DNA of 62,508 nt, counting the filler, from Dugesia japonica (taxonomy: Eukaryota): the NCBI GenBank assembly GCA_001938525.1. It is 5 parts of 5 records of this genome, joined end to end, with 100 filler letters (N's around TTAATTAATTAA, not from the genome) between each part and the next. Parts side by side here need not be neighbours in the genome. Positions count along the whole stretch, not along the records: positions 42,956 to 52,934 come from MQRL01392310.1; positions 53,035 to 62,508 come from MQRL01317991.1; 3 more parts are not named here. One strand, 5' to 3'. Below, in pieces: positions 2,488-62,508 of the stretch. The number at the start of each line of letters is the position of its first letter. The first letter of the stretch is position 1. The position numbers were made by a program, and so were the translations under genes. The notes below the pieces were generated by a model. The model saw nothing but the letters and a program-made list of their open reading frames with translations, did not search any database and had not been told where the DNA came from.

Positions 2488-2567
2488 TCACTTTTTTAAA
2501 AATTTACATAATTTCTAATAAATAAGATAAATAATAATAAAAAGTTATTTAATTAATAAAAAAAGAC

Positions 2568-9426: not shown

Positions 9427-9451
9427 TTTTAAATGTAATATTTTTTTTAAT

Positions 9452-10893: not shown

Positions 10894-10900
10894 TAATTTA

Positions 10901-11338: not shown

Positions 11339-11342
11339 TTTA

Positions 11343-12059: not shown

Positions 12060-12064
12060 TTTAT

Positions 12065-12956: not shown

Positions 12957-13240
12957 TTTTTAAATATCTAGTAAGGTCTCATACATATTCCTAAACCATG
13001 TTTTGATTCTTTTATTTTAACAATACCGCCAAATTTTAATTTTTTACCCGTTTCATTTATTACTGATTTTACTGAATCAGATAAGTTTGATTAATTAATT
13101 AAATTCTTTATAACCCTTTCTTCTTTATAATCCTTTTCCTTGATAAAGATTTAAATAAATTCCATTACCTTTATAACTTTCTACTATCTCTTTTCCTTTA
13201 AATGGTTGAGTAGTTTTATTTCCGACTTATTTTAATTGTC

Positions 13241-13528
13241 TTAATTCCTCTTCGGCATTTGTCTTTCTACACCTAATTTTAAAGCTTCTCTTGCTTTTAC
13301 AACAGCTGTTGCTACTCCTCTTGCTGCCGCTCCTAATCCGCCTACAACAGCTGCGGCTTTTGCAATAAAAGGAATCAAAGCTAATAATGGTAATATTCCT
13401 CCTTCTTTAGTTTCTTCATTTTTAACNGCTTCTTTAATTTTCTTACCAATCCAATATTTTTCATTATTTATTAAAACAGATTTAGATTTATTAGAATCTA
13501 TTAATTCATTTTCAGTAATATTAGTCAT
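13241..13528 (-). CDS. Adenovirus pX/mu-precursor-like small core protein
   Basis: EGGILPLLALIPFIAKAAAVVGGLGAAA resembles the GGILPLLIPLIAAAIGA segment of adenoviral pX (recalled from memory). Confidence 0.65.
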   Translation of the reverse strand: MTNITENELIDSNKSKSVLINNEKYWIGKKIKEXVKNEETKEGGILPLLALIPFIAKAAAVVGGLGAAARGVATAVVKAREALKLGVERQMPKRN

Positions 13529-13547
13529 TATTTTTTCAAATTATAAA

Positions 13548-14366
13548 ATGAGTATGGATTTGACTTCGTCAATAAGACACAAAGTGTCCGACTTACCGAT
13601 ATGGAATAAAAATAAAACATTATTTAATAATAAAATTTTACCAAATAATTTTAGATTATTAATTATTGGTTCTTCTGGTTGTGGAAAGAATGTATTATTA
13701 ATGAANNNNNNNNNNNNNNNNNNNNNNNNNNNNNNNNNNNNNNNNNNNNNNNNNNNNNNNNNNNNNNNNNNNNNNNNNNNNNNNNNNNNNNNNNNNNGTT
13801 TAGAGAATAATTTAACTAAGAAAGCTATTTTAAATATATTTAATAATCAAGATAGAATACCAGATGAAGTAAATACTGTGTATAGTATTGTTGAATGGTA
13901 TAAAGAAAATATTATTAATTCTGATGTTACAAATAAAAATTAATATATAGATGAGGAAAATAAAATTGATGTTACATTTTCTAATAAATCTTTAGATATT
14001 ATTTATTGTGACAATCTTCCTAAAAATAAAAAGAATTTAGTTATATTTGATGATGTGGTAAATATGAAAAATCAGGATATTCAAAAATCATATTTTACTA
14101 GAGAAAGACATAATAATTGTAATGTTCTTTATATATCTCAAACTTATTACGCTTAAGATAAAAACTCAATTAGAAATAATTCGAATTGTTTTATATTTTT
14201 CAAGTTAAATAAAAGAGATAAAGAGATCCTTTATCAAGATTTAATTAGTAATATCAAACAGGATAAATTATCCTTTGATAATTTTATTAAAAATCACTGG
14301 AAAGATAAATATAATTATATCTATTTAGATAGAGAAAAAGAAGAGATTATTGAAAATTTGTTTTAA
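13548..14366 (+). pseudogene. A32/FtsK-like genome packaging ATPase
   Basis: Walker A GSSGCGK, Walker B LVIFDD (~14038), TRERHNNCNVLYISQ, IRNNSN; in-frame stops and an N gap. Confidence 0.92.
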
Positions 14367-15050
14367 AAACTAGTTTTTAGTAATTCATTATCATAAAACC
14401 TTCCTAATATATCTTCATTATTTAAATCAGTTATTCCATATGTAATTGGTTTAGTATGATAAACTTTAGTTATTATAAAAATTTCATTAGTAAATTTTGT
14501 TGTATATATTTTTTAAAATTTATTTTTATATTTGAATATCCTTACTCTATCACCTATTTAAAACTTTTGCCTATTTAAGATATTATCATTCTCATGATTA
14601 TGTAAATTAATTATATCTTTAATTTTATCAGGATTTTCAGATGCTTTTTTTGGCGATAACTTAATATTACTATGAATTGAATTATTATATTCATTGACTA
14701 TTTTATCTAATAACGCTTTATTCCATTCCTGTTTCCCAATTGATTTAAAATATATAAACATTTTATTTTACAATGTTTTTATTAATCTTTCAGCAATAAC
14801 TGATTTACCTTCATTCTCTGTGTGATATAATTTTATATTATTTTCATTTAGAAATTTATCAAAGTATTTTGATTTTATTGCTCATTCTTTATCAAACTAA
14901 ATATAATCTGTTATTCTATTATTTTCTTCAAATATATTTTCATAAGCTTCTCTTAAAGATTCTTGAGTTTTACCTATCATTGGAATGCAAAAAGCATATC
15001 TTGTATATAAATCAATACATACTAAAATATATCTATACTTTTCCTGCGTA
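14363..15050 (-). pseudogene. Polinton retroviral-like integrase, 5'-truncated
   Basis: YILVCIDLYTRYAF, IAERLIKTL, YNNSIHSNIKLSP, GDRVRI, EIFII.KV..PITY..DL..EDILGRFYDNEL. Confidence 0.9.
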
Positions 15051-15686
15051 GCTTTGCTACTAGTCATCTAATATGACGAGTCAGTGGATTTTTTAACCAT
15101 CAACTTACCAACAAGTCTCCATCAATGTCGTCGCCTCATACAAAAACTGTTTATTGAATTGTCAAGCGTCAAAATGAAAGGGTTCTTCTGCGTCATATTA
15201 CACAGCAAAACCGCTTAATAAAAACATTAGACCTGATCATCAAAAAACAGGGTGAGCTGTCGGAGCACACCAAGCAGATTCTCACCCATAAGATCGAATT
15301 CCTACAACAACATAGAGCTGATCTGGAAAACCGCCTTGAACAAGAAACTTGAACCCGTTGGAACAGCGAAGATGACGAGGCCGCCTTCAATTTTATGAAT
15401 GGTGAGCCTACTAACCCTGGAGCTCTGAATTATATATGAATAATTAAAAAAATAAATTTTAGTACCAATATATTTCTTTAATTGTTTTATAAAGTAAATA
15501 ATGCGAAAATATGAACCCAAAATAAAGGTATACGAGTGAGCACTTCAAGTATACGTTGGAAGTTAACCACTCTATACTGATAACCTAATTAGGGACATTA
15601 GGTAAATTCTTTAACGGGTCCCCTGAGGGCTGCCTTTTTTCCCCCAGCCATATGTTTCTACTGTAAACTCAGGTGGAACCCCAACA
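15051..15686 (+). mobile_element. Unclassified multi-ORF TG..CA element, copy A (last ORF plus terminus only)
   Basis: Ends CTCAGGTGGAACCCCAACA as at 54583 and 56370 (rc); ORF 15085-15439 (INLPTSLHQCRRLIQKL..AAFNF..PGAL) homologous to 56602-56981. Confidence 0.8.
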
Positions 15687-16711
15687 ATATTTTAAACCCA
15701 GTGGTGTATTTTCGTTTGTTTGTTTTATTTGAAAATGTTTTTTAAAAATTTATTTTTTGGTGTATTTTTTAAATATATTTAAAAATTTGAACGATTTAAT
15801 AAAACTAATTCAGAAAATAACCAAGAAAATTATTCAAAAATGGTAAATTTTTATGATAATAATTTTAAAAATTTTTATGATACATAAAAAAATTTAATTC
15901 AAAAAAACTCAGTAAATGATTTGTTTCGCTGCACTCTCTTAGCGCTGATCAAATACCTAGTTATCTTATTAAATGAATAATAATATTTTAAAACAGATTG
16001 TAGAAGTACATACATTTATTTCTAATTTAAATGAAAATTTCAAATAATTTTTATTGTCTAAAATAATTTCTTTTTTGTAGATTTGTTTTTAATTTTAATT
16101 TTAAAGCTAATTTCTTTAATGAATTTAATTTTATTCAATTTCATTTCAAGTGATATTTTAGTAATCTAAAAATTCCATAATTGACTGGAAAGATTGTATT
16201 GGATATATTAAGTAGATTGACTGTATTGAGTATATTGGGCATATTTTGGATATTAATTGTATTGAATAATTGAATGTGTTAAATATATAGGGTTAATTAA
16301 TGATTTTTGAATTTTTGTATGTTGGATTATAATTTTTTTTGTGTTTTATTTGAATTTTATCATGAATGCTGTTCAAAGGATACACATCGAGAAACTCTGA
16401 TCCTAACTATTCTTTACCAGATTTCTTAATCTGAATCTTTTAAAAATCTCATCGACTTCAATGTAGTTTTAGTTTTTTTTGAAAATTATTGTTTTTATAA
16501 AATTTTAAAAATTACAATTTATATCATCCTTTTATAACTCGAGCGACACACACAATTTCATATTCATACAGAAGTAGCAAATAAAATTAAAATTTTTATG
16601 GATAACTAAAAATATTTTTAAAAAAACTAAAAATAATTATCAAAAAAAAAATAAAATTATTAACTTGTTTGCTTAATATCAAATCAATAAACTAAGAAAA
16701 GATTAAAAAAA

Positions 16712-16921
16712 ATGAAATTCTGTTTGAATTGTAATGAAATCATTGAAAATCCATATGAATATCGATTGTTTAGGTGCCATCATCTGTTTTCTAAATCTTG
16801 TATAATTGAAAGGTCTGTCGTACAGACTGTTTGCCACTTCAAATGTCCAATTGATGGATTATCTAATCTGACAATTTTGGCTAATTATAGTGATGTTGGG
16901 TTGGAACACATTCAAGAATAG
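16712..16921 (+). pseudogene. RING-finger-like ORF, probably truncated
   Basis: CLNC..CHHLFSKSC..CPID follows C3HC4 spacing with one ligand changed to Ser; early stop. Confidence 0.55.
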
Positions 16922-17084
16922 AAAATTGTAGCTCCGTAAAGTGTGAAGAAAATATGGACAATAGAGGGCAAAGTAGATGTGCTGGACCAGAAAATGGCTT
17001 ACTATATGCGAAATTATTATTATTATTATGTAATTATTATTAGTATAATTATTATAAAATTAATTTTTAAAATATTGAAAATCG

Positions 17085-17222
17085 AAACTCGGGCGTAGAG
17101 GACCCAAATTTTATCATACAGAAATAGAATTTATAATAGTGGAAAAAGAATGAGGAATTAAATAATAAAAATAATCTACAATAATATAATAATATATTAG
17201 AAGGGCCTCTACGACCCGTTTT
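17085..17222. repeat. Short inverted repeat pair, MITE-like
   Basis: AAACTCGGGCGTAGAGGACCC versus GGGCCTCTACGACCCGTTTT. Confidence 0.5.
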
Positions 17223-17259
17223 ATTTATTATAAATAACGCTAGTTAGCGTTTAATATTA

Positions 17260-19870
17260 TTAGAGGAGTAATTAATTTGGTCCAGTCATCTTTTTGCCTT
17301 GTCTGAATCGGATGATAGCAGTCATACATAAACAAAGAAGCTGATTATTCACCAGAAGTTCAGACAAGGACTTTGCCTAGAAACTAACAGATGCATCACA
17401 TAGGTCACATGAAGTGATGACCGAGATTTACCAAAATTCAAAAGTCCGAGTTCGTGTGCAGAAACACTGAGGTATGCACACCGAATTCAGGACTGTGGCA
17501 GCTAATCAGAAAGCCAGATAATGAAATACGCATTACTATTCGCCGGCTAATCGAGAACCAAATAATTTCTCTATCCTAGGGGAAATAAAACGGGCTGACG
17601 CGAAGCAATCAGTCAGAGTAAAAAAATAAATTTTTGTGTTAAATTGGAGAGCAGAGTATTAAAAAAAAATTTTGTGTTAAATTTTATAGCGGAGTATTAA
17701 AGATTCTTTGTTTAAATTTATAGCTAGTAACACAACGCGTATTTCTCAATATTGGATCTTGGACTCGGGATAAACGAAAAGTAATGTTTGTTCTTTATAC
17801 ATAGTTTTACCCCATTTTGGAATTTATGTAAACTTGTGCCATTGCCCAAATTTGAGTTCTCCGGGATGGATCGAGCTCCGGATTTATTCCGATCAGTAAT
17901 GAGTGTCTAAATATTATGAGGTTCTACTTATCCACGAATAACCTGAATGTAAAGAGATGAGAGTCATTGTAGAGCAAATCCAGAAAATGGATCTGATAGG
18001 ATTATCCGTAAATTATGAGTTTGCAGGAATTGGGAGATCGATCAATCTCGGGAGTAATTGTTTGGTTATTTGAGTTTAAAATGCTATGAGTTTGAATTCA
18101 TGGGAAATTAGCGGGTCCATTCGTGTTTTGGGTCACTAAGTATTTTTTTTATTTTTATTTTTATTGTTCTTGTCAAGCTATTTAATGTTAATAAAATCAT
18201 CATAATAAAGTAATTTTCATTGATTTACCATATTATTCATTCTGCATTTGATAATCAAGTACAATTTTTCTAAATATTCATTATTGCATTATTAATACAA
18301 TATCTCACACTTAAAGGTTTGACGATACCAGTCACGATAATAATAATATAATATCTCACCTATCTCTGTATTCATTATAGTTATTCCGTTTAGGTAATAA
18401 AATGAATTCCGGTAAAATATTATTTAAAAGAATAATAAATCAACCCTAAATTTCAGTAATCGTCCGACTAAATTATTTTCCATTAATTGTTGATAATGAT
18501 TACAAAAAATCCATTCTAGCATAAGACAATGACTGGAACGAGAAAAGATGCGTAATTAAGGCTCATCTTTCCTCGTTCTCGTCATATAACGTTGGAAGCC
18601 AAATTTAAGGCTGTAGGCCGAAGAAAATCATTCCACAATTAACCCACAATTAATGCTCGTACTATTTCATGATTTTATTTAATTGTTTATGGTCTATTAG
18701 ATGGTTAAAGGTAGACGCAATCTCCAAAGGCCTCCTTATATTTGACCCTACATTGACGATGTAGGCCGATATTATATTGAGTGGAACGAAGTGCGGATCA
18801 TGATAAGAGTAGAGGCAGAGAAACATTATCACGAGATCAAGAGCCTCGAGGCGGATAACGAGACGGTCCTAAAAAATAATAGAATAAATGAGTTAGTGTG
18901 TCAGTTGAAACGAGCTCGAGAGTCGCTGCAGAATCAGATCAAACAACTCCAGGGAGAGCTATCTGGCACTTCTCCAAAAATCGTTTGTGTTTTTTCACTC
19001 CGTAGTGCTACAGAGGTAGACGATGAGATCGAAGAACGGGAAATAATCCGTAATCTGATGGATTAGAGTGATACGAATGAACAATCAGTTTAATCTTAAT
19101 AAAAGTTTCTCAGTGTAATTTTGATTTTAAAGCAAAGTTCGCATTAATTGCTTTGTTGTTAATATGATTTAGAGAGTGTGATATGTAGGTCACAAGTAAA
19201 GTAAAAAATGCTGCAGAGGTGGTAGTGTATTGATATAACGAGCTTAGTTTTATTTTTTGTTTATTCGGTGTTAGTAGTTTGAGGAGCAAGCGATTGATAG
19301 AGACATTTTGCTCGAGTGAAATGGCAGATAGCGGTGAGGTTGTGACGGAAAACGTCCCAATTATGAAATTTGACATGGTATATTTTTATGCACTGGTTTT
19401 AATAGTATAATATATATAAATTCACAAGTAAGAGCGATATGAGGTAGTCTACAAATTTAGATCATTTTCAATTATAAAATAATTAAAATTCTTCTTATAA
19501 TTTAGTGGATAAAACTGCCGAGAATAAAATAAATATGAGGGATGTGTTATCAACGCAGAAGAAGTGGAAGGAGGAGCGTAGGACACTCAGAAATGAGGTG
19601 CTGCAGCTGAAGAGCCAGGCCACCAAACACAACCTCAAACATCAACAGCTTAAAGAGAAGGAGTTTGCTCTACAACAAGCAAACCGTTTGATGGCTGATA
19701 TAATCAAAGTTTATGCCGATCGAGAGGCGGTGACATTTGCTAATTTACTATCGCTGTGGTTGTTGTATCAAGAACCACCTGAGGAGTCCAGAGTGAACCA
19801 TACCACGGTCTATTTGGATTTCGGAAAATTAGAGTAATAAAATTTTTCAATGTCGCATTAGTTTTTTTTT
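17260..19870 (+). mobile_element. Divergent relative (copy B) of the multi-ORF element; ends not identified
   Basis: GC-richer ORF islands (18700-19066, 19505-19837) separated by AT spacers with AATAAA; 19505 ORF shares MRD..W.E..IIxxYxDRE with the 53793 and 57458 ORFs. Confidence 0.45.
17615..17725 (+). repeat. Three imperfect ~40 bp tandem units
   Basis: Repeated GAGTA(T)TAAA..TTTGTGTTAAATT..AGC. Confidence 0.65.
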
Positions 19871-19890
19871 CTCATTTATAACGGTTATAT

Positions 19891-19990
19891 NNNNNNNNNN
19901 NNNNNNNNNNNNNNNNNNNNNNNNNNNNNNNNNNTTAATTAATTAANNNNNNNNNNNNNNNNNNNNNNNNNNNNNNNNNNNNNNNNNNNN
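19891..19990. other. Artificial contig linker (also 31036-31135, 42856-42955, 52935-53034)
   Basis: Identical 100-nt N-TTAATTAATTAA-N block; the 12-mer places stops in all six frames. Confidence 0.95.
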
Positions 19991-31035: not shown

Positions 31036-33189
31036 NNNNNNNNNNNNNNNNNNNNNNNNNNNNNNNNNNNNNNNNNNNNTTAATTAATTAANNNNNNNNN
31101 NNNNNNNNNNNNNNNNNNNNNNNNNNNNNNNNNNNTTTTACCCGTTTAATAGAATCATAACTATCATTATTTACATCGGACAAGATTAAAAGAAAATTGT
31201 TAGTATTCTCAGTTGACTTTTCATATAGGAATTTTTCAAAAATATTTTTAAGAGTCAAAAAGTTCGAATTAATGGAAATGTATATTTGTGTTTATTAAAT
31301 TTTTTGAAAGATTCGATACATCAAAATGTTAAAATTATAAATTCGAGTTACCGAAAAAATTTCGAATTAGATAGTGTTGGCAATCCAACAACAAGCAGCA
31401 ACATCAGCTAATTGTTCCGAGAAATATAGGAAGTCATGATAATGATATTTATTTCTATTGATAATTTATACTTAAAAATCATAACAATCGGCTAATCCAA
31501 GAATGGTAATAAAACTTAGCACGCCAAAAAATTGTTAACACTATTAAAAATAAATAATAAATAAATAAAATAATTGAGAGAATATTCTTTTTACTTTTTT
31601 TTTTAATTATTTACTAATTAGTTTGTGTTTTAATTTATTTAAAAACAATTAATAATCACTAGATTAAAATGATACCAATCAAATATGCAGAGAGTTTTGT
31701 AAATACTTGGGCCNNNNNNNNNNNNNNNNNNNNNNNNNNNNNNNNNNNNNNNNNNNNNNNNNNCAACAACAAGCAGCAACATCAGCTAATTGTTCCGAGA
31801 AATATAGGAAGTCATGATAATGATATTTATTTCTATTTATAATTTATACTTAAAAATCATAACAATCGGCTAATCCAAGAATGGTAATAAAACTTAGCAC
31901 GCCAAAAAATTAATAAATAAAATAATTGAGAGAATATTCTTTTTACTTTTTTTTTTTAATTATTTACTAATTAGTTTGTGTTTTAATTTATATAAAAACA
32001 ATTAATAATCACTAGATTAAAATGATACCAATCAAATATGCAGAGAGTTTTGTAAATACTTGGGCCGTTGATTACGACTCAGTTTAACATGGAGAGCCGT
32101 TGTATTCGGTTATCTGAAATTATTGCATTTCGAGCGTCATCTATTAAGGAACATTTTGAAATTTGCTATAACGAAAATGCCGATTAATATGCTCGAAGAA
32201 AGAACAAAAGAAATTGTATTTGCACGGAATCCACGAATTACCTGAAATATGGAAGAAATGTGCTGCTAACGACGGAAGCTTCTTTGAATTAAGTACTTTT
32301 GATGTTTCTCTAGAATTTATCTTATTTTCATTGATATCAAATCCGTATGATTAACTGATAAACCTAGTATTTATTACACAATTATATATGCACTTTGTAT
32401 AAAAAATGAAGTTTTGGCACTGGGTCAAAATTGCATTAATATTTTTAAAAAATTTTGGAACGTTGATAAAATCATATTTGCCATCCCCAGGGTAATCTAT
32501 TCGTTTATTGTTTCTATTTATTAATAATAACTTCTCTTATTGAATTGTACTTTTCTGTAATTTATATTTCTATAAAATTTATATTCTATAAAAATGTTAA
32601 TAACAATTTTATTACTCTGAAAATTTTATTATAATTTAATTAATTATAATTTATTTATATTTTAATTAATTTTGTAATAAATTTAATTTAATTTTTATGC
32701 GCAGCATTATTGAAAATTTTATATTTACATAGTAAACGATAATAGAATTATTCACGTATGACAAATGTTNNGAGAAAAATATAATAAAATTTTTTATGTT
32801 TTAAAATTATATTTTGTATTATGCATCAGCAAATATGTATAAATACTGCTATGTATCATACATTTGTTTTATTGCGTTGCGGTATTATAGACAATTTATC
32901 ATGGTTTGCGGACCCTTTTAATATTTGGAATTTAAATTTACNNNNNNNNNNNNNNNNNNNNNNNNNNNNNNNNNNNNNNNNNNNNNNNNNNNNNNNNNNN
33001 NNNNNNNNNNNNNNNNNNNNNNNNNNNNNNNNNNNNNNNNNNNNNNNNNNNNNNNNNNNNNNNNNNNNNNNNNNNNNNNNNNNNNNNNNNNNNNNNNNNN
33101 NNNNNNNNNNNNNNNNNNNNNNNNNNNNNNNNNNNNNNNNNNNNNNNNNNNNNNNNNNNNNNNNNNNNNNNNAATGAATGACTGCTTAA

Positions 33190-41943: not shown

Positions 41944-41978
41944 AAATCCTGACGAAGACAAGGTCGAAATATCGATTT
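41944..41978 (+). ncRNA. Minimal type I hammerhead ribozyme (Penelope pLTR type)
   Basis: AAATC-CTGACGA-A-GAC.AAG.GTC-GAA-ATAT-C-GATTT: stem I AAATC/GATTT, intact core, 3-bp stem II, palindromic stem III. Confidence 0.75.
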
Positions 41979-43169
41979 GTTATCCAATATCAATAATTAA
42001 AACCTAAATTTTGATCTAAGCTTTTATATTAAATGAATGTTTCGTAATGCTTTTATTTTAAGTTACGAAATTTTTAAAAATTAATAATTTCTTTTAATTN
42101 AATAAATTGATTTTCAGATGATAATTGTATACGTTAAAAAATCTTTATGATATTATTAAAGTGTTTGGATATATGGTAAGTTATTACGAATTATGATCAA
42201 TATTATGAACTTTGATAATAAGTAAGGATTTATTTTATTTAAATTAAATGTTTATAATTTTATTTAAATTATATATATAGTTGATTATATATGTGGTAGT
42301 TGCAATAGCGTTACATAATAATTTAGTTTTGCCAACAGAAACAAAAATAAATATTGATCTATCAGATACATGAGTTGTGGTAATACTGAGTCATTACTAC
42401 CTATCAAAGTGGACAAATGTTCTGTAATTGATTTTGAGAAATGCAACTTAATTGAAAACATTCAGTAACAATATAAGATTACACATCATTAATTTTTATT
42501 ATTCATTAAAGGTGAAATATAATAAAATAAATTTAACAGAATACTACTCACTAGTTTAGTTTAAAAGCTTTAATTCTGTAACAGCCTATCTAAATAACGG
42601 CTGTGGTGTGGATCGGGATGAGCAACGGATTTTCTTCTTCTTATTTTTCTTTGAAAGTGTTTGGAGATATGGTAACTTATTACGAATTATGATTAGTATT
42701 ATGAACTTTGATAATAAGTAAGGATTTATTTTATTTAAATTAAATGTTAATAATTTTATTTAAATGTTAATGTTTTTCTTTAATGATTTAACTTAATGAA
42801 CTTTAGTAATGCTTTTCTTTAATGAAAATAAGTAATGATTTTCTGTAATGATTTTNNNNNNNNNNNNNNNNNNNNNNNNNNNNNNNNNNNNNNNNNNNNT
42901 TAATTAATTAANNNNNNNNNNNNNNNNNNNNNNNNNNNNNNNNNNNNNNNNNNNNTCTAGACTGGAGATACTTTGATAATTATATCTTCCAATAATCTAA
43001 CATATTCTAACTGAAAACCGTAGCAAATAGTTCTGAGAAAAAAATTTAATTAACAATAAATTCACATAAAAATTTAAGTCCAGTACTTAATTAATATTTT
43101 AATGAATAAAAAACTGGACAATATTCTATTTAACTAGGCCAGAATAATTTCCTTTTGCATCTGAATCGC

Positions 43170-45212: not shown

Positions 45213-45827
45213 CTGATTAACAGTATTGGCTGCCAAACTTGTAAAAAAGGTTCCAGTACTAACACAAAATAACAAATTTAGGTTTAATGCAGAAGGAGCC
45301 ATCACAAAGCCACAAATACAACTAGTAACAACAAGTGTAGTTAACCGTAATTTACCTAGTTTCATATACATATCATATCTATGTTTGAGCGATAAATAAC
45401 TTAAGTTTCGAGGAAACAAATTAAGTGATAACTGTTGCGAAGGATCTATTTATTCCATTAAATACGTACAAAAGTATTAAATAATGATACCTTTTATATC
45501 GTTAATTTTAGAATCATTCAATGTTTGTGGTTTTAAATATTGAACTAAAACTTCTGAATCATTATTGTAATGCCTTTTTGGATATTCGCCTCTGCAGAAC
45601 TTCTCAATAGAATTTAAATCAATAGTCATTGGTTTCATATGAATTGGCCGAACAAGACAAATTTCTTCGCCTGATTCAAGACGAACATAATTTAAACAAC
45701 CAGGCTTTAACGTTATTCTAGAACTATTTGAATCAATGTTCAGTTTTGTTTTCTGACTCGATACAAATAATTTTGCTAAACTGGTATTATAATGTTTTAA
45801 AAATCTACGACTCTGTAACGTAATCAT
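45213..45827 (-). CDS. COX10: Protoheme IX farnesyltransferase, exons 1-2 only (intron 45446-45490)
   Basis: LGKLRLTTLVV..GFVMAP..GT...SLAANTVNQ|GT matches the COX10 first TM region; the 45-nt GT-AG intron joins it in frame to a basic presequence-like N-terminus; later exons not found in the window. Confidence 0.85.
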
Positions 45828-46347
45828 CAAGAAATACTGTTACTAAGTTATTTAGTCTAATGTTTGTGGATTTAGATAAATTTTTACAGGTTTTAATAAT
45901 TCCAGGAATAAGAATTGATTTTTTACCAATTTCACTATCACAAAGATAAATGAATATAGTAATAACTGTTAAAACAACTTCGACGTTATCTGAGCACAAT
46001 CCTTTAATTATCAACCAAAAATTTTCGTGATGGCAAATATAAGAATGATATGTCACGTTTGGAGAAATATTACAAATTCCAATAAGTGAATTCAAATGAA
46101 TTCTATGGGAAAGGCTTTCGTTAGTGAACTGTTGATTGTAATATAAATTAATATTTTCAAAAAATATATCTAAGGTATTTAATTGTAATAAATGTTTATG
46201 ATTTCTACTATCGTAGGCAAAATTGGCAAGATTTGCAATTATTTGATCTTTTACTTCAATTGAGTCAATATTTTTCAATTCGTTAACAATTTCTTCTAAA
46301 TATTTTAGTCTTTCTATGCTTCCTGGTGCAGCTCGACCTTTATTCAT
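45805..46347 (-). CDS. ARMC7: Armadillo repeat-containing protein 7
   Basis: RLKYLEEIVNE..KDQIIANLANFAYD..GICNI..LCS.N.EVVLTVIT signature. Confidence 0.92.
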   Translation of the reverse strand: MNKGRAAPGSIERLKYLEEIVNELKNIDSIEVKDQIIANLANFAYDSRNHKHLLQLNTLDIFFENINLYYNQQFTNESLSHRIHLNSLIGICNISPNVTYHSYICHHENFWLIIKGLCSDNVEVVLTVITIFIYLCDSEIGKKSILIPGIIKTCKNLSKSTNIRLNNLVTVFLDDYVTES

Positions 46348-48025: not shown

Positions 48026-49033
48026 TAATTAAGCATCACCTAACTTATAATTTGATTTTAACTACAGATTTACATGACTTATTTTATCATTTTGTTGTTT
48101 ATATCAAACTTCTGTTTGAAAGTTCTCTGTATTTTTATATTTGAATACAGTTTTAAAATAAACCTTCAACTGAGTAATTAATTTACTTTCAAATCAATCG
48201 ACATTTTTAACTTTTAACGAATTTGAAGAGTTTATCGAGATAGAAATAAGAACTCAAAAGTACAATACCATTTCATACAAAAACACGGTATTTTAAGTCT
48301 AAAAATTTTAATTTGAAGTTCGATAAAATATTTTTAAAATACTTCTTTTTTTCCCCATTTTGATAATACATTTCAAAATTTTATAGTAACTATAACTTTT
48401 ATTAAAAACATTGATTAAAAAATTCAAAACATAAATGTTGCTAAAGTAAAACAATTAGTATATTATTATTTTATACTACTATTGTGGTAGCTGCTTTTAA
48501 CATATCAGTTAAAAGTTTAATTCAGATCAGGTTAATATACAAGAGTGATAAATATTATGTAATCTTTAATATACTTTTTGAATGTACCTCCAAAAAAAAG
48601 AAAATGATATTAAAGTGGTACTTATATTGGGAGTAAAGTACATTTATACTGTCTTCTATTATTATTTTCTCACATTAAATGTTTTGTAAAATCTTTTTTT
48701 ATAATTTATCGGAATCAATAACCAAAGAATCGAGTTGTGATAAGTTCCCTGCAAAATAACCATCATTTCTTGTTTAATTTTGCTATTTTTATTGTGTTTT
48801 AGTTCTTAAATGCATGAATTTTTTTCTTTTAACTAAAAAAATAAATGGTGGATATTTTTTGCTGGCCTAATTTAATTTTTACAAAAATGCATAAAACTGT
48901 CATCGATTGGTTGATCATTGGAAGTAAATATTGTTAAATATTTTCTACAAGGTTAAGTTAAAGTAATTTCCACTTGAAGCGCTAAAATTTTAATAATAAT
49001 TGTTGATTTTAATTTTTAATCCCTGACGAAGAC

Positions 49034-49685
49034 ATTAGATGGATAGTAACGCACTAGAACACCCCTCCACCTCATTTTTAAAGTCTACTGTTCCCAGTTT
49101 TAAGCGTTTTGATTGGTCGAAAATTTTAAGGTCCAGGTCAAATGGTCTCAATTTTTGAAGAGTCATCGAAGTTTCCTGATGAGGTCATAATGTGATTTTT
49201 TTTCTTTTAGGGTAAAGTGTTAAAGGATTTTTATCGGTTGAATTTTTTTTAAGGTCAACTATTCTAGATTTTTGGTGAGTCATCTGTGTGAAATTAAATT
49301 TTTGTTTAAATTGAAAATTTTTTATGATGTTTATTAACATGATGTTTATTTAACAATTAACATTAGGTGCTCCCGGGCACTATTAACATAAAAAAACAGC
49401 GCCCCGGGCAATATTTATATTAATATCATTAAAAATTATTTTCATGCATTGTTTCATTAACAGTTTTGTTTGAATTTCATAACATTACACTAGCTTCTCC
49501 GACATGTACAGTGCAATGGAGCAAATCCATCAAGGTCTGTTAGCATCCAATCGAGTTCATTCATAAAAGTTTAGGCCAGTTGACCTTGACCTTAAAAATT
49601 TCGACCAATCAAAACACCTAAAATCGAGAACAGTTTACCTTAAAAAGGGGGTTAGGGTGTTCCAGTGCGCTACTATTCATCTACT
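49034..49685. mobile_element. 652-bp non-autonomous Polinton-type element with 6-bp TSD
   Basis: ~110 bp imperfect TIRs ending CATCTACT; GAAGAC on both sides (49028-49033, 49686-49691). Confidence 0.85.
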
Positions 49686-49691
49686 GAAGAC

Positions 49692-50247: not shown

Positions 50248-51084
50248 ATGGCCTGTAGAAGAGAACGAAATATTCCTGGTTCATGCCTAAATTTGCCACA
50301 AGGTCAGGATTATGATTCTCCAGTTAAAAGATGTCGTTTACAATATATGCAGTCTGAACATATCAAACATAAAGATATCGCAGAACTTGAAGGTGAAGAG
50401 GGCCCGATGCCGGATACTCTTAGGATAGGAATAAGAACCCGTTATTTTGCAATCGCTCCGAACGATTCATCACACAATGAATGGATAGCGTACACAATTT
50501 ATCATTTATATGATCGTTTAATTAATTATTGGAACATTTTAATGTATTTCTGTTTGGATTCAGAATCAGCTAAACGTTTACATAAAGCACGATCAGTAAA
50601 ATATTACGGAGTTCCACCAGCTAATCCTTTGCCCGCAGAACTAAGAGATCAAGTTAATGAACCAGACAATCATTGTTTTTTTGATAGAAGTTGGTTTCCG
50701 ACTAATCATGACCCAGAAGGGTGTAGCGTAATTGAAACATTTCCTCAATATATAGAAAGATATATTGAGCATTTGGATTTGATTAGAAATGATACAAATA
50801 TTATGCCCGGTGTCGAGGAAGAATTTCAATCAAATTTTATGGAGGCAATGTCACCTACATACAAAAATATTATTCCATTTTTTGCACATGTATATCGAAA
50901 ACATTATAGAGGTTTATGTGGAATGGGAATTTTATATCATTTTAATTCATTTTTTATGAATATTATACACCAAGGATTGGTGTATAAAATGATTACTGAA
51001 AATGATATTGATGACCAATACGTATTCAATCATTATAAAAGGATTTACAAAGAAGAAGAAATGAGAGTCAAAGGTGGTAATTAA
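50248..51084 (+). CDS. Intact intronless 278-aa ORF of unknown function
   Basis: Longest ORF in the track, GC above flanks, AATAAA downstream; no recognised motif except SPVKRCRL. Confidence 0.7.
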   Translation: MACRRERNIPGSCLNLPQGQDYDSPVKRCRLQYMQSEHIKHKDIAELEGEEGPMPDTLRIGIRTRYFAIAPNDSSHNEWIAYTIYHLYDRLINYWNILMYFCLDSESAKRLHKARSVKYYGVPPANPLPAELRDQVNEPDNHCFFDRSWFPTNHDPEGCSVIETFPQYIERYIEHLDLIRNDTNIMPGVEEEFQSNFMEAMSPTYKNIIPFFAHVYRKHYRGLCGMGILYHFNSFFMNIIHQGLVYKMITENDIDDQYVFNHYKRIYKEEEMRVKGGN

Positions 51085-52644: not shown

Positions 52645-54583
52645 TGTTGGGATTTTACCCTAGGTGGGTTGAATTTTTGTTTGGTTTAAAACATTATATA
52701 AAATTAAGTCTAGGGTAATTGACCTGGTAAAACCCCGCGATGAATTTAAATCTAGTGTCTCCAAAAAATCCAGATCTTCGGGATGAAGCCGTTGACTCGT
52801 AGCTCGAGTGCATACTCTCACCCCTTTGGTTCGGGTTCGTTTCGCATGATACTCGCCTGCTTGAAATCCTACTTATAAATCATTAATTTATTTGATTTCA
52901 ATTTATAACGGATTTTATGGAATTTTTATTATCANNNNNNNNNNNNNNNNNNNNNNNNNNNNNNNNNNNNNNNNNNNNTTAATTAATTAANNNNNNNNNN
53001 NNNNNNNNNNNNNNNNNNNNNNNNNNNNNNNNNNATCTTGTTCTCTCCCCGGATGAAATGGATTTAAGGTGTTTTAGGGAACTATATCCCCTCCCTTGGG
53101 AGGTTGACTTGGACATTGAACCTGGCTATGAATCGTAAAATAAAATTCGGTGTTGATTACACTCATTGTTACTATTTAACTAATGTTGTTTTATATTTAA
53201 TGATGTTACGAATATCGTATTATGTTGACGGTAATTTTAATTTTTTCAGTCAGAAATGGAATCAATATAGGAGAGAATAATCTATCGCAGAACTCGTCGC
53301 ATAATTTTCTGGCGACATAGAAATCCGCATAACCGCGACGCAGGTGTTTTGTCTGACCGATCGGACTTACCACCGGTAGATGTCATCGTCGCCAGAATCC
53401 AGGATTTTGTCGAGCGACAAAATTATTGGAGCTGGATGGGGCTGGACCAAACCCTTGTCACGACATTCCATTATCAACCTACAGCCCCTCCTCAGCGGTG
53501 CAGGCTTTTATTAACCATTGATTATGAGATGTAGCGAGGATTCAGAGAATACGGCACTCGTGGAAGATTCGACTCTTACTCATTAGTGTGTTACTATTAA
53601 TTTTGTTGTATGTTAAAATAAAATCACTAAGTATTCCGGTCTTATCACTAAATCCTTTTATTCCGAAATTTTCTTATATTAAAACTAGGATTAGTGGTAG
53701 TTAATTGTCCACCGGGTAACAATAAATGTAAGTATTCGGTGTTACTCAACAAGGCTTTGTATTGTGTTTAACCCAAATTCGTTTTCTTCTAGTGCACACG
53801 TCATAGAATCGCGCTACAGAACCAACCAAGAAAATGCGAGAGTCGGTGATGAGGCCGAAATCACGTTGGACCTATATAAACTAGAAAAACGGCGATGGGA
53901 GGTCAGTACGGCATACGCTGAAGCCAAAGTAGGTCGTTATAAAAAGAAATGTTTGGCTTTTAAAGCCGAGGCTGAAGCGTCCCACCGGCAAGAGAGAATC
54001 CTGAAGGCTCAATTAGATACGTTCACTGAGATTATCCGGTCCTACCAAGACCGAGAGAATTAACTGGTTCAGGATATTCACAAATTGAAAACTGCAATGC
54101 CCCTCGAACCATTGATGGTCGACAATGGTACCCAGGCTCCGAGAACTTAATATCTGCCATTGCATAAATAAATGTTTTGATATTAAAATTTAATTTTTTA
54201 TTCTATTTTTTGCTTAGTTAATTGGCATATCTGTCGCCGAACGAATAAACTAATGTTATATCTTGTTTAGTGCCGCGAATCACATTCCCAAAAAGCTTAA
54301 GAAGATGTCACCCAATTATGCGACATCTCATATAATTTTCATGTAAAATAAAGTTTTTATTTTTTGACTCATTCTAACCTTTAATAAATTCGTGGTAATA
54401 GGGAAAATAGTGAACCTAAATCCAAAGGCTGATGAGCGCGCACCTCCCATTAAGTGAGAGCTCAACTACCATAAGCTGAATACCTAACCTAGGTGCATTA
54501 GGTTAAATTCTTGGAAGGGTCCCCTGAGGACTGTTTTTCCCCAGCCACATTTCTCCTCATCCTACTCAGGTGGAACCCCAACA
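52645..54583 (+). mobile_element. Unclassified multi-ORF TG..CA element, copy C (spans a linker gap)
   Basis: TGTTGGGATTTTACC start and GGTGGAACCCCAACA end; ORFa ..53138, ORFb 53256-~53590, ORFc 53793-54150, ORFd stub from 54271, collinear with copy D. Confidence 0.8.
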
Positions 54584-54599
54584 TCTGTATAAGTTTTTG

Positions 54600-55400
54600 A
54601 TAATTATCTATTTTAATATTGATTTATCGATTTAAATATAATGAAACCATCACACAATAAAGCATTCAACGATACCTTACTCAGGTCTAAGTCATTTATG
54701 ACAAATAATATTTTAATGAAGTTTCAAGTGTATTAGATTTGATTTCGGATAGAACCACAGTAGGTTACATGCAAAATTTAAAGTAGTTAGAGCTTTATTA
54801 GTGTTGAGAATATTAGCAGCAATACAAATAACATATGGATTTCAATTGGCATATGATATCTTCTTTTTAATCGGATATTTATGATTGAAGTAGTCGCTAT
54901 TTTGAAGATCGGTATATTATGATCGCCATTATTAACGTAAACCGTGAAAATATGTACGCTGTTGCTACTATAACAACAAAATAATATGAACATAAACAAA
55001 TTATCATTTATTACATCTTCGTTGCTTAAACTTTTATTAATTTTTTCTACATTTCATTCAATCAATTTGTCTTCTGACTTATTCAAAAGATATCGTCTTT
55101 TATGAATTTGTTTTATCACTTCAAATCGAACTGCATATCTTTCTTTGTCTTTTATTCTACATTCTACCTTAATACATATTTCGTCTCCAACTTGAAATGT
55201 ATCTTTATTGGTATTAAGTAAATAGATTCTTCTTTCTTTTATTCATTACTGAAACACCTTTCTCTGTGTATGTATACTTCTGCTGAACTTAATCACGATG
55301 TCTTCTGACATGTTTCATTCAATAAATATTTAATTTCTGCTACTAACTCTGCCAAATGTTTTATTTTTTTTATGTTTTAATATTGTTTTAAAATTGAAGT
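54600..55400 (-). mobile_element. Gypsy integrase 3' end plus probable LTR
   Basis: FQVGDEICIK..RRYLL..NVEKI followed by TGTAATAAA at ~55015. Confidence 0.55.
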
Positions 55401-55544
55401 TCTACTATTCCATTTGTATTATAATGATATTGACTAGAAAAGCAAATCATTATATTCATTGAATCTGTCATCTTTTTAAAATCTTTTGATTCGATAACTT
55501 TCATGAACTTCATTGAAAATTAAATAATTCTTAAATCAAGCAAA

Positions 55545-56330
55545 ACTAATCATCTATAATTTAGATACATAGACGGTATTTTCCTTGTAACTAATTCTCC
55601 TCTAGAGAACATTTTAGAATTAGCTAACAGTATAAATGATAATATTAAATTTACTTTAGAGAATTCAATTGACTTCCAGATTCCTTTTCTAGACACTTTA
55701 ATACAATGGAAACCCGGTGAAATATTAACTACCAATTATATTTTAAACCATTTTGCAGTGGAATAATAAAACTACCATCATCCAGAAAATTTGTATAATT
55801 AAAGGTGAAAGAATTCGAGCTGAGAGACTAACTTTAAATAAAGAAATAATAAGTCAATAAAAAATAAATTCTTAAATAACGGTTACCTAAATAAAATTAT
55901 ATCAAAATATTAAACGTTGAATACAAAACATAATAAATCAAACCAAAATCAAACACAGTTATTAAATTACATTTTAATAATGAGAAATGTAGCCAAATCA
56001 TGCAAAATATAATAAACAATTCTACACTCAAATATAATCCAAGAATAATATTCAAAACGCAAGAATCTTTGGGCATTCAATTACAGAAACCAAAACAGAA
56101 TTTATGTAGTTCCAAATGCATTTGTGATGGTAGAAATATATGCAATGAAAGTGTATAAAAAATATATATAAAATGTATAAAAATGTTAAAAATAGCTTGC
56201 ACGATTTGTCAAGAGACATATATAGGATAAACATGCAGAAAAATCCAAACAAGAACTAAGGAACATCTGAAACAAATACATTTTAGAAGAAACAATGTAT
56301 AAGTAGTTTTTTTTATTCTGATTAAATGGT
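55545..56330 (+). mobile_element. Penelope-like retroelement RT C-terminus and GIY-YIG endonuclease, degenerate
   Basis: FRYIDGIF, NIKFTLE..IPFLD, then CTICQETYIG.T.R..QTRTKEH. Confidence 0.85.
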
Positions 56331-56369: not shown

Positions 56370-58490
56370 TGTTGGGGTTCCACCTGAGTAGGATGAAGAA
56401 AAATGTGGCTGGGGTAAACAGCCCTCAGGGGACTCTTTCAAGAATTTAACCTAACGCCCTGGTGTANNNNNTTGACCTCTCGCTTAATGTGAAGTGCGCG
56501 CCCATAAACCTTTGGCTTTGTGTTCACTATTTTCCCTATTAATACTAATTAATTAAAGGCGAGACAAAGTTAAACTATAGACACTTTATTTTATAAAATA
56601 ATTACATCAGATCCAACGCCCCCGGATCTAACCATTAGGCTGGATCGGCTACCAAGAAATTGAAAGCGGCGACATAGTCGTTGTCGTCCCATTAAACTCA
56701 GGTAGGGTTTCCTAACTGGCGGTAGAGGTCAGATATACTGTTTGAGGAAGTCTATTTTCCTCTGCAACAAAAATGTATTCTTCTCCTCTAGTGCTTTTGC
56801 CCGCACCGCCAGATCGTTGTTTTTTCACAACCTGATAAGGTTTTTTGATCAGACGATCTCGTTGGTTCAAATGTTTGAGAAGTGCTCTGTCGGTTTTCCG
56901 CTTTAGATGGCATTCTATTAGTAGGCGGCGCAAAATACGATAGCATCTGCAGACACTACTAGGAAAGGTGATGCGAGGCACTAAAATAAGTGAAATATTA
57001 AAGATATCATAACAATGAACTAGATTAGTCTCAATCTTGGTTAGCAGTTATTTTATTTAATTTATTTAAATAAATGAGCAAATACGAAAAGAAAAATTTT
57101 ATNNNNNNNNNNNNNNNNNNNNNNNNNTTTTCTCTATCATCAAGGGTTTGATAGGTATCCTGTCCCTGAGATTTAAGACATCCCCAACCAGATTATTCTC
57201 TCGGTCGTGGCTGGACAGGATAATTTCCGCAAAGGACTCAACCTTCTTTTTCCTCGCTTGCATGTGGGAGGCTTCGGCTTCCTTTTTAAAGGCGATACAC
57301 TTTTTCTTGTATCGGAGTACTTTACTATTCGCGGTGGCCATCTCCGCCTCCCAATGACGTTTCGCAAGGCGGTAAAGATCGCAAGTCATTTCTTGGTCCT
57401 CACTGTTGTCTCTCATTTTTTTGGTGGGAGCTGTAGGACGATTCAGAGAGGAATGCACTACAAAATAGTAACTATTACTAAAATATTATTATCGCAATTA
57501 TGGAAGCACACAACGCTTAAAAATAAACTTTCATATTAATATTGAACGAAATCTTCTTTTAATGTAATAACAAAGAAATAAGTTAGATTATCGTTAAGAA
57601 AAGACACTTATTTATTTATAACTTTAAGCTTCAAACACAGAAATCATTGTATATTCGTAATTGTATCGATATTAGGAGCGGTGTTCTCGGCATCTATATT
57701 ACCAGAGGGTTCTCTCACGCCCAAGAGTAAGTTGGAGATAAAGGCTTGTACTACTGGAGGCGGGGCCGGAGGTTGATAGTTAAACGACGTAACGTGGTTA
57801 TGCGCTGGTCCGTTCTATTGGTGGAAGCGTATCCTCTCGCCGAAGCTCTGGATGCGAGCCACTGTAGCCTCGATGGGTGGTAAGTTCGACCGATTTACCA
57901 AAATACCTGCATCTCGGTGATGCGGGTTATGGTGGCGTCTAAAAATAAAACGGTGAGTTTTTCGATCTATTACTTGTTCCCAAACGGATTACATTTCTAT
58001 TTAAAAAGTAATACTAATTATTACCATAACACTAATAAAATTTATATAGGTTTATGTGACAAAATTATAATTAGAAAAGTCTAAGGTTAATTATACTAAG
58101 ACAAGACCATATGAATTGGTTTTATATTAATTTTTATTGTTAAACATAATAGAACTGAAGATGGTTATTCCTCGACTATGTTAACTTTTTTATCTAAGGG
58201 GAACATCTCTGTGAAACATTGGAGATCGGTTTCATCAGGATGTTCTATTTTGCCACAAGTCAGAACGTGGGCTATCAGTTGCCTCGAACGAGCGGCCTGA
58301 CGTTGCTTTTTATCAGTCTCAAAGCATGAGGCAGCTCTGCTGGCATAGCTAAAGGAGAAACAATCAAACATATATATAATGGTTCTGTTCACGTTTAATA
58401 CTCCTGAGAAATTTACGAGAAATGCTTGTTAACTGATGACACTCTTTACTGGGGTACGGTAGCGGGGATGGACCGAGGTATGTGGCCAGA
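56370..58490 (-). mobile_element. Unclassified multi-ORF TG..CA element, copy D
   Basis: Terminus TGTTGGGGTTCCACCTGAG; ORFa ~58490-58165, ORFb 57994-~57640, ORFc 57458-~57100, ORFd 56981-56602. Confidence 0.85.
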
Positions 58491-58499
58491 TTTATCTTG

Positions 58500-59450
58500 C
58501 CATTGAAACCAAGAGAATGAAACGATGTATTGGAATACTAAGCCGAACCTTGCAAAAGGAACAACTAAAAGTGGATACGAACATTCCTCCTCGTTTAGAC
58601 ATTATTTGAATGCTAGAGCCAATGAATTCCACCACGCGGATGCAAATCACAACGTTCATAACAGGTTTCTCGTGAGGTCGAGGGGGTTAATAATTACAAT
58701 CAGAGGAGCAATGGTATTCGTTTCAATGTTGCTAGTAATAATTAGACTGGTCATAATAATGATTAATGATATTTAACATTATGTTGTTAGCGCGAATCAT
58801 ATTGATAGTGCTACCAATGCTAAACACCATACTACCCTAAAAAACAATAATTCTAATGTCGGTGACTATGATGGCCATGGGGTTAATCATAAGTAGCATT
58901 ATATATGATCTTTGTCTCAGTGCAGAGATGAGACGAAAAGTAATCTTATGGATAATGATCACCTAAATAATAGCAGCAACGGTAATTATGAAAATAAATA
59001 TAATAAATCCAGTTAATGGCAATACAATTGGTCAAATAATAATAATGCTGAATAATAATTAATATTGGTATGGATTATAATAATATTACGGAAAAATTGA
59101 TGCTACTTTAGTATTAGTGAGGAAGATGTTAATTTAAGCGATAATAATAAATTGAATAATGGTAATAATAAAGATAAAGGAAACACATATTTCTAAATTT
59201 CGACCTCACCAATTATTGTTAGATCATCATAGTGGCCATTACAGTAAGTAATATGCAAATTGTCAGTATCAGATCGAGAAATAAATTATGCTTATTTTTT
59301 TAGCGGCGATGTTAAATATATGACTAATCTTGGAGAGAGTTCGATTATGGTTAATTTTAAAGAGATGTGTGGGTCATTCCTAATAATCCAACACAATCTC
59401 CTATTTTTGTTTCGTTAGTACGATCTTGGTACACGCTAATGATGTGAGTA
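58500..59450 (+). mobile_element. Possible Gypsy gag(-pro) remnant with Asn-rich stretch
   Basis: IGILSRTLQKEQLKVD..NARANE resembles the gag GI..LQ..LL..ARA.E motif; very decayed. Confidence 0.4.
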
Positions 59451-59985: not shown

Positions 59986-62200
59986 ATAGTTCGACTATAA
60001 GTATAAAATTTACTTTGTAAATAATTTCAGTTTTTCTGCAACGGGTACTTTGCGAAGTGGGCTTGATTTTGATTGAGAATTCCTCCGGTTGGCGTTCCGA
60101 TATATTTGTTTTTCTAACTAGAATACTTCCTTTGAATAGTTATGTGATGCCCGATTATTAAGCTTCTCGTCAATTTTCTTTACAAATCAGTTTGGGCAAA
60201 AATAAAACTTGGCTAGCTTCACAAAACTGTTAAAATTTTACTATTTTTTGCGTGTTTCCTTCTAATTTTCTGGGGGTTTAAATATCGTTTTTCAAGACAC
60301 CCTGACTTGCTTGGCATTGGCCAGTTATTTTTAATTCAAACCTCTGGTTTCTCATTGGCGTTGGTGCCAATTTTCAGAGTTTTTTAAAGGTTTTTTAGCA
60401 TTCTATTGGTGCCTNNNNNNNNNNNNNNNNNNNNNNNNNNNNNNNNNNNNNNNTAATGATTCCTTTGTTCTAATTTTATTTTTAGACATCCCATTAGTCC
60501 AGTTTTTGGGACCTTATAGCAGCCTTCTGGATGATGGCAGGGTTTTTTGACAGAAAAGAATCGATGACCAACCCTAATTCCTTCTGGAATTTTCTTACGC
60601 CGAGCTCCTGTGATTTTCCGGAGCAAAGTTATTCGCATAAAACGAATTTCAGCCTCATTTTAATTTATTTTACACTTAAGTTAATAAATATTTTCTTTAT
60701 AATTAATTCTTATGGTTAATAATTTTCTTGCTTCTTTACTAATAATTGATTAATTTTCTTTAATTGATTGCATTAATGGATGTTGGCTTGATGACCCAAG
60801 TTCATTGTTATCGGGTTTTACTTAGGTTGTTCATTAATTTACACCCTGTTCGATGGTTGTACTCGTTCTTCTTCTCGTTTTAACCATTTTTGGTGCCTTA
60901 TGATTTCTTCTTCCTTTCCGTATTTTATAATCAATGACCGCCTTGGTCTTGCTTCCTCCTCTATTTTGTGTTTAATATATAACTTGGTGAGTTATCGACT
61001 TTATTTAATCAAATAGAAAAACTTGGCGAGTTATCAATCATACATCCTTACAAAACGTTTCACCGTCAGGCTTCTTTGAACCGAGGATTGTACCATAAGA
61101 TCTACTGTGTCATACCGCAACCAACGATACTATTACGGTTCCCATAACATGTATATGCTCGTTTTAAATTGAATTTAAAAAGTTATTGTTCTCATTTAAG
61201 CATCGTTTAGGTGAAAACGAAGCATTTTATGTCCAAGCTTCTTTATGTACTTTTAAATTTCCATAAGAATATTACCAAGATCAAAAACCATAATAACTTT
61301 TTTACCGTCCCACTTGAGTGAATTGACGATAACACTATGTAATTTACTGCGTCAATAGGCATCCAACGATATCATGACCGTTTTTGTATGACTTATAAGT
61401 ATGTTCGTAAATATAAGAATATCAAGAAGATAAACCATGGCTCCATTGAATCCGCTTACCACTTTTATCATCATCTCTTTGAATGTCCTTGGTGCCGCTG
61501 CGATGCCAAATGGCATTCTATTAAAACATCTAACTCCATCTAACTTTGCCAACATTCCATCGACATAAGGCGTAGGAAAGGCTTTTCTTTTCGTTACTGC
61601 GTTCAATTGTCTGAAATCTAAACAAATTTTTATGTCTTTGTTTTCCTTTTTCAATACACACATCAGTGGGGTATTCCATGGAGAGTTCATTTCCAGATAA
61701 TATTATTCTCGAATAGTTTTTGGATAGCTTCTTCTATTTTAGATTCTAAATTCATTGGTTGATTATACGGTTTTACATTGATTAGTTCACCACTTGTTAT
61801 GATTTTGTGTCTTGTTAGATGATTCGTCATACATCCCAATTATCTGCCATAAAAGCATCTTCTTTACTTCCAATTATTTTCAATAACTTTTGATCCTCTT
61901 TAATCTTAAAATATTTAAAGCTCTTGTCAATCGCTCTCTTTTTGAAATTTGTCTCCCGAATTTCGCATCAATATTACAAATGTAATTTTCGACTTTTTCA
62001 TCCGTTTTACTGTTACCCTTTTCCATAAGCTTATATCCAAAATTCTTCTGCATATCTATTCCTCCTATCAGATCTGATGTTACTCTTTCAGCAACTAAGA
62101 AAGTAATCATTTGCAAACTTCATCAATTATCACTCCAATTTTAACTTTCACAACAATTTTAAGTGTACTATTATTTGCACAACGCAATCTTTCATTACTC
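59986..62200 (-). mobile_element. Decayed Ty3/Gypsy pol (protease end, RT, integrase remnants)
   Basis: DLIGGID; SPWNTPLMCVLKK..CLDFRQLN..RMPFGIAAAP.TF..VYLLDILIF. Confidence 0.9.
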
Positions 62201-62508
62201 ATTTCTAAATTTGCTTACATAAAACTTAATATTTATTATAGATATTATTCAGAATTTAATTTAAATATTTGCAATTTAATTTTATTAAATTTCTGTTCAA
62301 TTTACAAAAAATTTAAATCCGTTTTAAAAATAACAACGACATACTCAACATTATTGTTATTATTATTATTTTTTTCAATATTTTTTTTCAAATATTTTTA
62401 AAAAAGATTTGATCGAAGCTTTTATATTAATAAATTCTGAAAAACGACCAATGGTTACGTCAAATAATTATTCTCGCAATTATCGTTAATGTAAAACTAT
62501 TATTATAA

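Follow-up and report, generated by a model that had tools for sequence, protein, structure and literature searches.

To our knowledge, the LTR elements with mapped leader structures are few (Ty1, retroviruses). For the DNA ends of such elements, the parts of PMC3601003 covered here give an LTR integrase consensus, TGTTRNR...YNYAACA, with the integrase reading 8–15 bp at the element end, and name AATAAA as the other conserved LTR motif. In planarians, the total length of the giant gypsy element Burro/GYPSM1, as given in the sections of PMC6431247 available, implies LTRs of several kb.

The window analysed here, a stretch of 62,508 nt from Dugesia japonica, is AT-rich, animal-type DNA with one ARMC7-like and one Mob1-like gene as well as remnants of Polintons and of gypsy RT, and it contains three copies (A, B and C) of a structured terminus that can be set beside these systems. 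The original prediction had claimed that the three are related, and the relationship proved real: an exact 19-mer is common to all of them, ending at 15686 (+), 54583 (+) and 56370 (−), and was matched in none of 100 shuffled sequences, even allowing 3 mismatches. A profile built from A, B and C matches only these three within the window. All three end in CCCCAACA, which fits the integrase att consensus YNYAACA and lies at 54576–54583 (+) in copy B, where 54583 is the element boundary. Copy A (15583–15686, +) consists of an upstream hairpin at 15583–15603, a terminal domain at 15616–15681 and the terminus at 15679–15686, and copy C (56370–56454, −) of a terminal domain at 56435–56375, the terminus at 56377–56370 and the 3′ arm of the upstream hairpin.

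The shared sequence extends well upstream of the terminus first noted: B and C are 78% identical over 260 nt, homology at the protein level covers about 1.5 kb of B upstream of its terminus, and A and C share ORF3 (protein comparison, E 7e-8). The motif AATAAA is invariant in all three copies, 221–237 nt before the end and after the ORF cassette; AATAAA is frequent in so AT-rich a window, and the conserved feature is its position. It lies in a conserved, poly(A)-signal-like AAAATAAA, found in B at 54345–54352 (+; 237 nt before the end), in C at 56592–56585 (−), and in A at 15449–15456, within the segment 15098–15456 (+) that also holds an ORF3 remnant.

On its left side A adjoins, as read by eye, what is left of a cut Polinton integrase near 15095. 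This belongs to a degenerate Polinton/adintovirus-like element at ~2550–15095 with remnants of a protein-primed DNA polymerase B (Pfam E 3e-5), in which a protease, a capsid-like ORF, a packaging ATPase and the integrase that is cut at the left junction of A can also be made out by eye. Elsewhere in the window are a single-ORF divergent Mob1/phocein gene with a long unrelated N-terminal part (50248–51084, +; Pfam E 7e-13), an intronless ARMC7-like gene (45805–46347, −; Atlas score 0.96–0.97) for which a protein search gave no match at 1e-10, and, at 49033–49686, a MITE-like structure in which inverted copies of about 124 bp (81%) flank 400 nt. The four 100-base gaps (19891–19990, 31036–31135, 42856–42955 and 52935–53034) carry the linker TTAATTAATTAA in their middle, apparently an assembly joiner, and contiguity across them is uncertain.

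Boundary, abundance and transcripts

Genome-wide variation was followed in public DNA contigs placed on 54430–54660, from three runs and two samples (2,618, 2,078 and 2,185 contigs per run). Immediately after 54583, 74, 72 and 68 contigs diverge in the three runs, with an agreement of 0.46–0.48. Because contigs leave at this same point in every run, the terminal CA is the true end of the element, with mixed AT-rich flanks beyond it. Within the window the flanks of A, B and C are likewise unrelated (18–20 of 60 positions identical); those of A and C start with ATAT and TATA, and that of B (54584–54633) belongs to another repeat. Summed word depth reaches a maximum of 238,258 within the domain and is 14–18 in unique flank, a sign of a very abundant repeat and not a copy number. 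Depth also rises about tenfold towards the end of B, over its final ~190 nt. The three copies are thus the right-hand ends of a mobile element with a high copy number.

Transcripts are sparse: in the part searched of one oligo-dT RNA run, 14 reads with 5 different starts lie near 54494, downstream of AATAAA; in the parts searched of two other runs, none started near 54494 in the second and none fell on the domain in the third. Nearly all RNA reads in the stretch are carried by a very high-depth repeat between B and C (~55480–56160), in which a Penelope-type RT-like remnant can be made out by eye.

For the terminal ~8 bases the simplest account is an integrase att site, a signal at the level of DNA. 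The original prediction had seen at the element end a cis-acting signal in RNA or single-stranded DNA, and a cis-acting signal there is supported by the sharp genome-wide boundary, a J-loop that varies while the stems hardly do, and two pairs with two-sided changes. Of the two forms proposed, RNA is favoured over single-stranded DNA only indirectly.

The orphan ORF cassette and the LTR reading

Upstream of the structured end lies a cassette of small, GC-rich ORFs, which point toward the end in all three copies. In B (53038–54353, +) they are degenerate small ORFs or exons: an ORF0 remnant, ORF1 at ~53260–53531, ORF2 at ~53793–54135 and an ORF3 stub that starts at 54271; the TAG|TGC acceptors lie at 53792 and 54270. 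In C (56585–58690, −) the cassette comprises ORF0, ORF1 at 57997–57647, ORF2 after an acceptor at 57458 and ORF3 after an acceptor at 56981, so that ORF2 and ORF3 start after TAG|TGC acceptors in B and C alike. The two copies are identical at about 60% of bases (139 of 231 in ORF1 and 93 of 150 in ORF2), and the differences fall mainly on third positions: 45, against 25 and 22 at the other positions, over 77 codons of ORF1, and 33, against 10 and 14, over 50 codons of ORF2. This excess means that both have been selected as proteins, under purifying selection. While the genes diverged this far, 32 of the 34 paired columns of the terminus stayed identical.

What these proteins are related to was searched for widely. 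No Pfam family was found for ORF0, ORF1 or ORF2, and a structure model predicts ORF2 as one long helix. A HMMER scan of 1.84 billion proteins gave a single credible outside homolog of ORF1, P0002, an intact 94-residue protein on a 512-base ENA contig (E 6e-9, 35–38% identity to ORF1); the other two of the three matches were dropped, P0003 as repeat-driven (5 stretches) and P0001 as probably so (31 stretches). The N-terminus of P0002 looks like a WW domain by eye, and Pfam gave no match for it at E up to 1. A protein search with ORF2 found no match, nor did the ORF1 alignment in a word index; the Atlas held no usable match to ORF1, none of five window proteins was found in the protein collection, and no relatives of the cassette were found among viral contigs.

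Elsewhere in the window, region D (16700–19890, +) has several GC-rich small ORFs with apparent introns and a RING-finger-like ORF at 16712–16918 (Pfam zf-RING_10 E 4e-4, below the cut-off), and its end is lost in a gap. It may be distantly related to the B/C cassette, the link being weak (17 and 68 of 1000 shuffles reached it), and it was not established as a fourth copy.

Several features expected at an LTR were looked for. A candidate left end of B, TGTTGGG at 52645–52651 (+), matches the right end over 7 bp in inverted orientation and sits at a rise in GC; it lies across the gap 52935–53034, and the heptamer is expected by chance about once per strand in the window. For A and C no such left end was found. 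No target-site duplication of 4, 5 or 6 bp was found at this candidate, itself beyond the gap. No primer-binding site was found after the three window copies or in the majority of loose contig ends, a count by contigs that favours unique flanks over a shared primer-binding site. Upstream of C, on the same strand, are pol remnants with a gypsy protease-like stretch (by eye) and an RT (Pfam RVT_1 E 8e-4, below the cut-off); since their GC content is 31–36%, against 42–48% in the cassette ORFs, they may belong to another element. The remnant at 60840–62210 (−) is a deleted gypsy pol with protease-like, RT and possibly integrase C-terminal parts. Apparent introns, such as the cassette has, are unusual inside an LTR.

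The explanation that best accommodates these observations, to which we give a probability of roughly 55%, is that the right end is the U5/att end of a long, ORF-bearing LTR of the Ty3/gypsy type with a selected RNA fold. The last 7–8 bases would then be the integrase recognition site, read as DNA, and the stretch after AATAAA would be R-U5. In a 5′ LTR the last ~150 bases would form the folded leader of the genomic RNA, and its closing stem would lie five bases ahead of the primer-binding site, much like the U5-IR stem of retroviruses; by the same analogy the fold might help primer placement and the start of reverse transcription, or packaging. A, B and C would be solo LTRs or remnants of 3′ LTRs. 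Alternatively, the element may belong to an undescribed class, high-copy and integrase-dependent but not a conventional LTR element, in which a spliced orphan-gene cassette is followed by a four-hairpin RNA terminus that serves as replication signal and has been preserved by compensatory changes between families that are about 60% identical in their genes; this we consider unlikely, and propose it tentatively.

Conservation and variation of the terminal fold

In copy B the terminal domain (54517–54578, +) is built from an outer stem, 54517–54528 with 54565–54578, an inner hairpin at 54529–54546 and a variable, pyrimidine-rich joiner of 18 nt at 54547–54564. The outer stem and the inner hairpin were found where they had been predicted, but with A.C mismatches in the inner hairpin of B and the outer stem of C; the structure, said to end immediately before the terminal CA, in fact ends earlier, with five unpaired bases after the stem. 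The ACCTAA/TTAGGT hairpin upstream is visible at 15583–15603 in A and at 54482–54503 (+) in B, where it has a 7-bp stem with pair 7 mismatched, but the copy ending at 56370 has no visible 5′ arm (N at 56467–56471). A further predicted hairpin, absent from the original prediction, lies at approximately 54438–54462 (+) in B.

Across the three copies the named stems are paired in 49 of 51 cells (96.1%). Invariant columns make up 32 of 34 paired and 16 of 32 unpaired positions (Fisher P 6e-5), a contrast for which the structure was chosen from the same three sequences. The J-loop is variable and the stems are nearly unchanged; loop lengths vary between copies while arm lengths are constant. The expectation of conserved stems and variable loops was in this respect borne out by the paired columns, but not by the unpaired 13-base linker at 54504–54516, which in the genome-wide contigs is almost invariant too.

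The genome-wide contigs give a larger set. Over 54517–54578, sites varying at 5% or more make up 3 of 34 paired and 12 of 28 unpaired positions (P 0.003), whereas over 54482–54563, a contrast that leaves out three sites private to B, they make up 5 of 36 stem and 13 of 46 loop positions (P 0.18). From these two contrasts and the near-invariant linker it follows that conservation favours the stems without being confined to them.

Within the inner hairpin (18 nt) the sole variable sites, 54530 and 54545, are pairing partners (chance 0.03–0.11). Copies A and C have G-C at this pair; A-T makes up at least 35–42% of depth and G-T at least 14–15%. At pair 7 of the upstream hairpin (54488 with 54497) A has T-A, and C-G accounts for at least 85–88% of read depth. 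These bounds on two-sided change are marginal frequencies from partly different contigs, not single molecules, and the same marginals permit ~14% A.C mismatches if 54530 and 54545 vary independently. The G-T class fits RNA of the + strand better than the opposite strand, provided that A.C is rare. In the third hairpin (54438–54462) one pair is U-A in A, C-G in B and U-G in C. Two-sided changes are thus seen in three separate hairpins, each of which could be one event. The check for conservation and covariation in a larger alignment, as the original prediction had proposed, was therefore favourable in its stem bias and, as bounds, in its two-sided changes, but not over 54482–54563.

The stability of the domain is no better than chance in most tests. 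Its folding z is −2.09 (A), −0.79 (B) and −1.85 (C) as RNA and between −1.6 and +0.1 as DNA, and the terminal window ranks 2 of 15, 22 of 42 and 10 of 58 for fold stability along copies A, B and C. Within the main domain none of 17 pairs shows a two-sided change among the three copies alone. These weak z-scores and the missing covariation, together with the conserved unpaired linker and a stem/loop contrast that loses significance without the terminal 20 nt, are what would be expected if the fold were incidental to the end of an element, LTR or other, the conserved sequence being DNA bound by integrase or another protein and the two-sided changes, any of which may be a single event, being due to repair of a quasi-palindrome by template switching or to a single split between subfamilies. 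We find this distinctly unlikely: such changes occur in three hairpins, the 5′ arm of the terminal domain lies 55–66 nt inside the element end, beyond the 8–15 bp that integrase reads according to the part of PMC3601003 covered, and it is the loops and not the arms that differ in length. The terminal fold is probably real.

Other element classes and known systems

The original prediction had held that the terminus does not fit a hammerhead core, and this stands: CUGANGA-stem II-GAAA is absent at every terminus on both strands, with no Rfam match there, and the CTGAGGA that B contains stands on its own, without the rest of the core. The comparison with Rfam that had been proposed as a check gave no match for the terminus; over the window there were no matches at gathering level, and loose E-values brought up only sub-threshold hits, none describing the domain. 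The window contains no tRNA or tmRNA. As a separate observation, 41949–41969 (+) carries a CTGANGA-stem-GAAA pattern resembling a minimal hammerhead of the Penelope type, with no Rfam match at E up to 5; the window has 6 such patterns, with 3.6 expected.

A Penelope-like or other target-primed retroelement, comparable to the Terminons, would also have a structured 3′ end behind a multi-ORF cassette, and its terminal fold would be recognised by the reverse transcriptase. The Terminons described in the part of PMC6431247 covered are truncated at the 5′ side, end in a 3′-terminal fold and carry numerous accessory and coiled-coil ORFs, and here ORF2 is predicted to be a long helix, A has no 5′ part and the splice acceptors are kept. 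We doubt this explanation strongly, since the copies have no hammerhead core, no telomeric repeats in their flanks and no tail, and their end fits the integrase att consensus; moreover, A is truncated against a cut Polinton integrase without a matching other half, which suggests deletion.

The end could instead be the TIR of a cut-and-paste DNA transposon of the Ginger2 type, with the arms serving as transposase sites or as a fold in single-stranded DNA. In the part of PMC2836005 covered, Ginger2/Tdd elements have ends in TGTNR, targets of RTATAY and TIRs of 50–180 bp; the reverse complement of the present end begins TGTTG and so agrees with TGTNR, two of the three flanks (A and C) are AT-alternating, and depth rises about tenfold at the end of B. 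It is very unlikely nonetheless: A, B and C all have the same end, for which the chance with a TIR is 0.25, the candidate left end of B matches over 7 bp only, the window holds no left-end copy of the structure and no long TIR was found, the folding z as DNA is −1.6 to +0.1, the flank of B misfits RTATAY, and Pfam found no transposase or integrase-like ORF among the scanned cassette ORFs, although the copies may be non-autonomous.

The least probable of these explanations is that the end belongs to a virus-like element, integrating, multi-gene and unclassified, in which the small spliced genes would be the genome proper and not LTR cargo. In its favour, the orphan ORFs number at least four and come with acceptors and AATAAA motifs, ORF0–2 have no Pfam match and the whole protein scan gave only one credible homolog; against it, the cassette yielded no polymerase, capsid or Rep, no relatives were found in viral contigs, and the part of PMC6431247 covered already describes long LTRs and accessory ORFs in giant gypsy elements. 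Outside the window the terminal 19-mer occurs at one viral and six metagenome loci, which were counted as chance because all seven lack the upstream arms, and the two-arm pattern was found at no locus in viral sequences. The 3′ end of a Helitron is a short hairpin followed by CTRR, and this class was rejected as the copies end in AACA.

In the literature searched, which covered neither the Repbase reports nor Grohme 2018, no account of the structured terminus was found, and the portions available of PMC11410931, PMC10954484, PMC4455052, PMC10175614, PMC13238120 and PMC13309565 do not describe it; the element may already be named in the Repbase reports or in Grohme 2018. With diverged copies that number in the hundreds to thousands within a single genome, it offers a natural covariation data set, and the fold can therefore be tested by computation alone. 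If the element is an LTR element, it carries several selected, spliced-looking orphan genes and extends what LTRs are known to contain; if it is not, it marks an abundant element that is unclassified.

Among described systems, the retroviral U5-IR stem, which closes beside the att end, and the structure of the Ty1 5′ leader (TIPIRT) are functional analogies only, for a role in priming, dimerisation or packaging, as far as the material on them covered here goes. The GLT2 repeat of Schmidtea mediterranea, judged from a probe in Table S1 of PMC8532177 (400 of 485 characters), shows by eye an AT-rich intron, a TTTAG|TGG acceptor and a GC-rich coiled-coil exon, and in exon style is most like region D (19508–19834); one GLT2 primer had no match in the window, and no description of GLT2 was found in the literature. 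By description, Burro/GYPSM1 shares the thousands of copies, the accessory ORFs and the coiled-coil and RING motifs, but its accessory domains lie mostly inside the polyprotein and the part of PMC6431247 covered describes no structured LTR end. Closest are the LTRs of animal Ty3/gypsy elements (Metaviridae), which, in the part of PMC3601003 covered, have the same YNYAACA 3′ end, the same AATAAA followed by a T/GT-rich stretch, high copy number and AT-rich flanks; they differ in that here at least 1.5–2.3 kb of spliced-looking orphan ORFs precede the end, and that a conserved four-hairpin fold is not among the LTR motifs given there. On balance the terminus works like the U5 end of an LTR, with membership in that class putative; its att-like end is ordinary, its RNA fold probably selected, and the unusual part is the orphan-gene cassette that precedes it.
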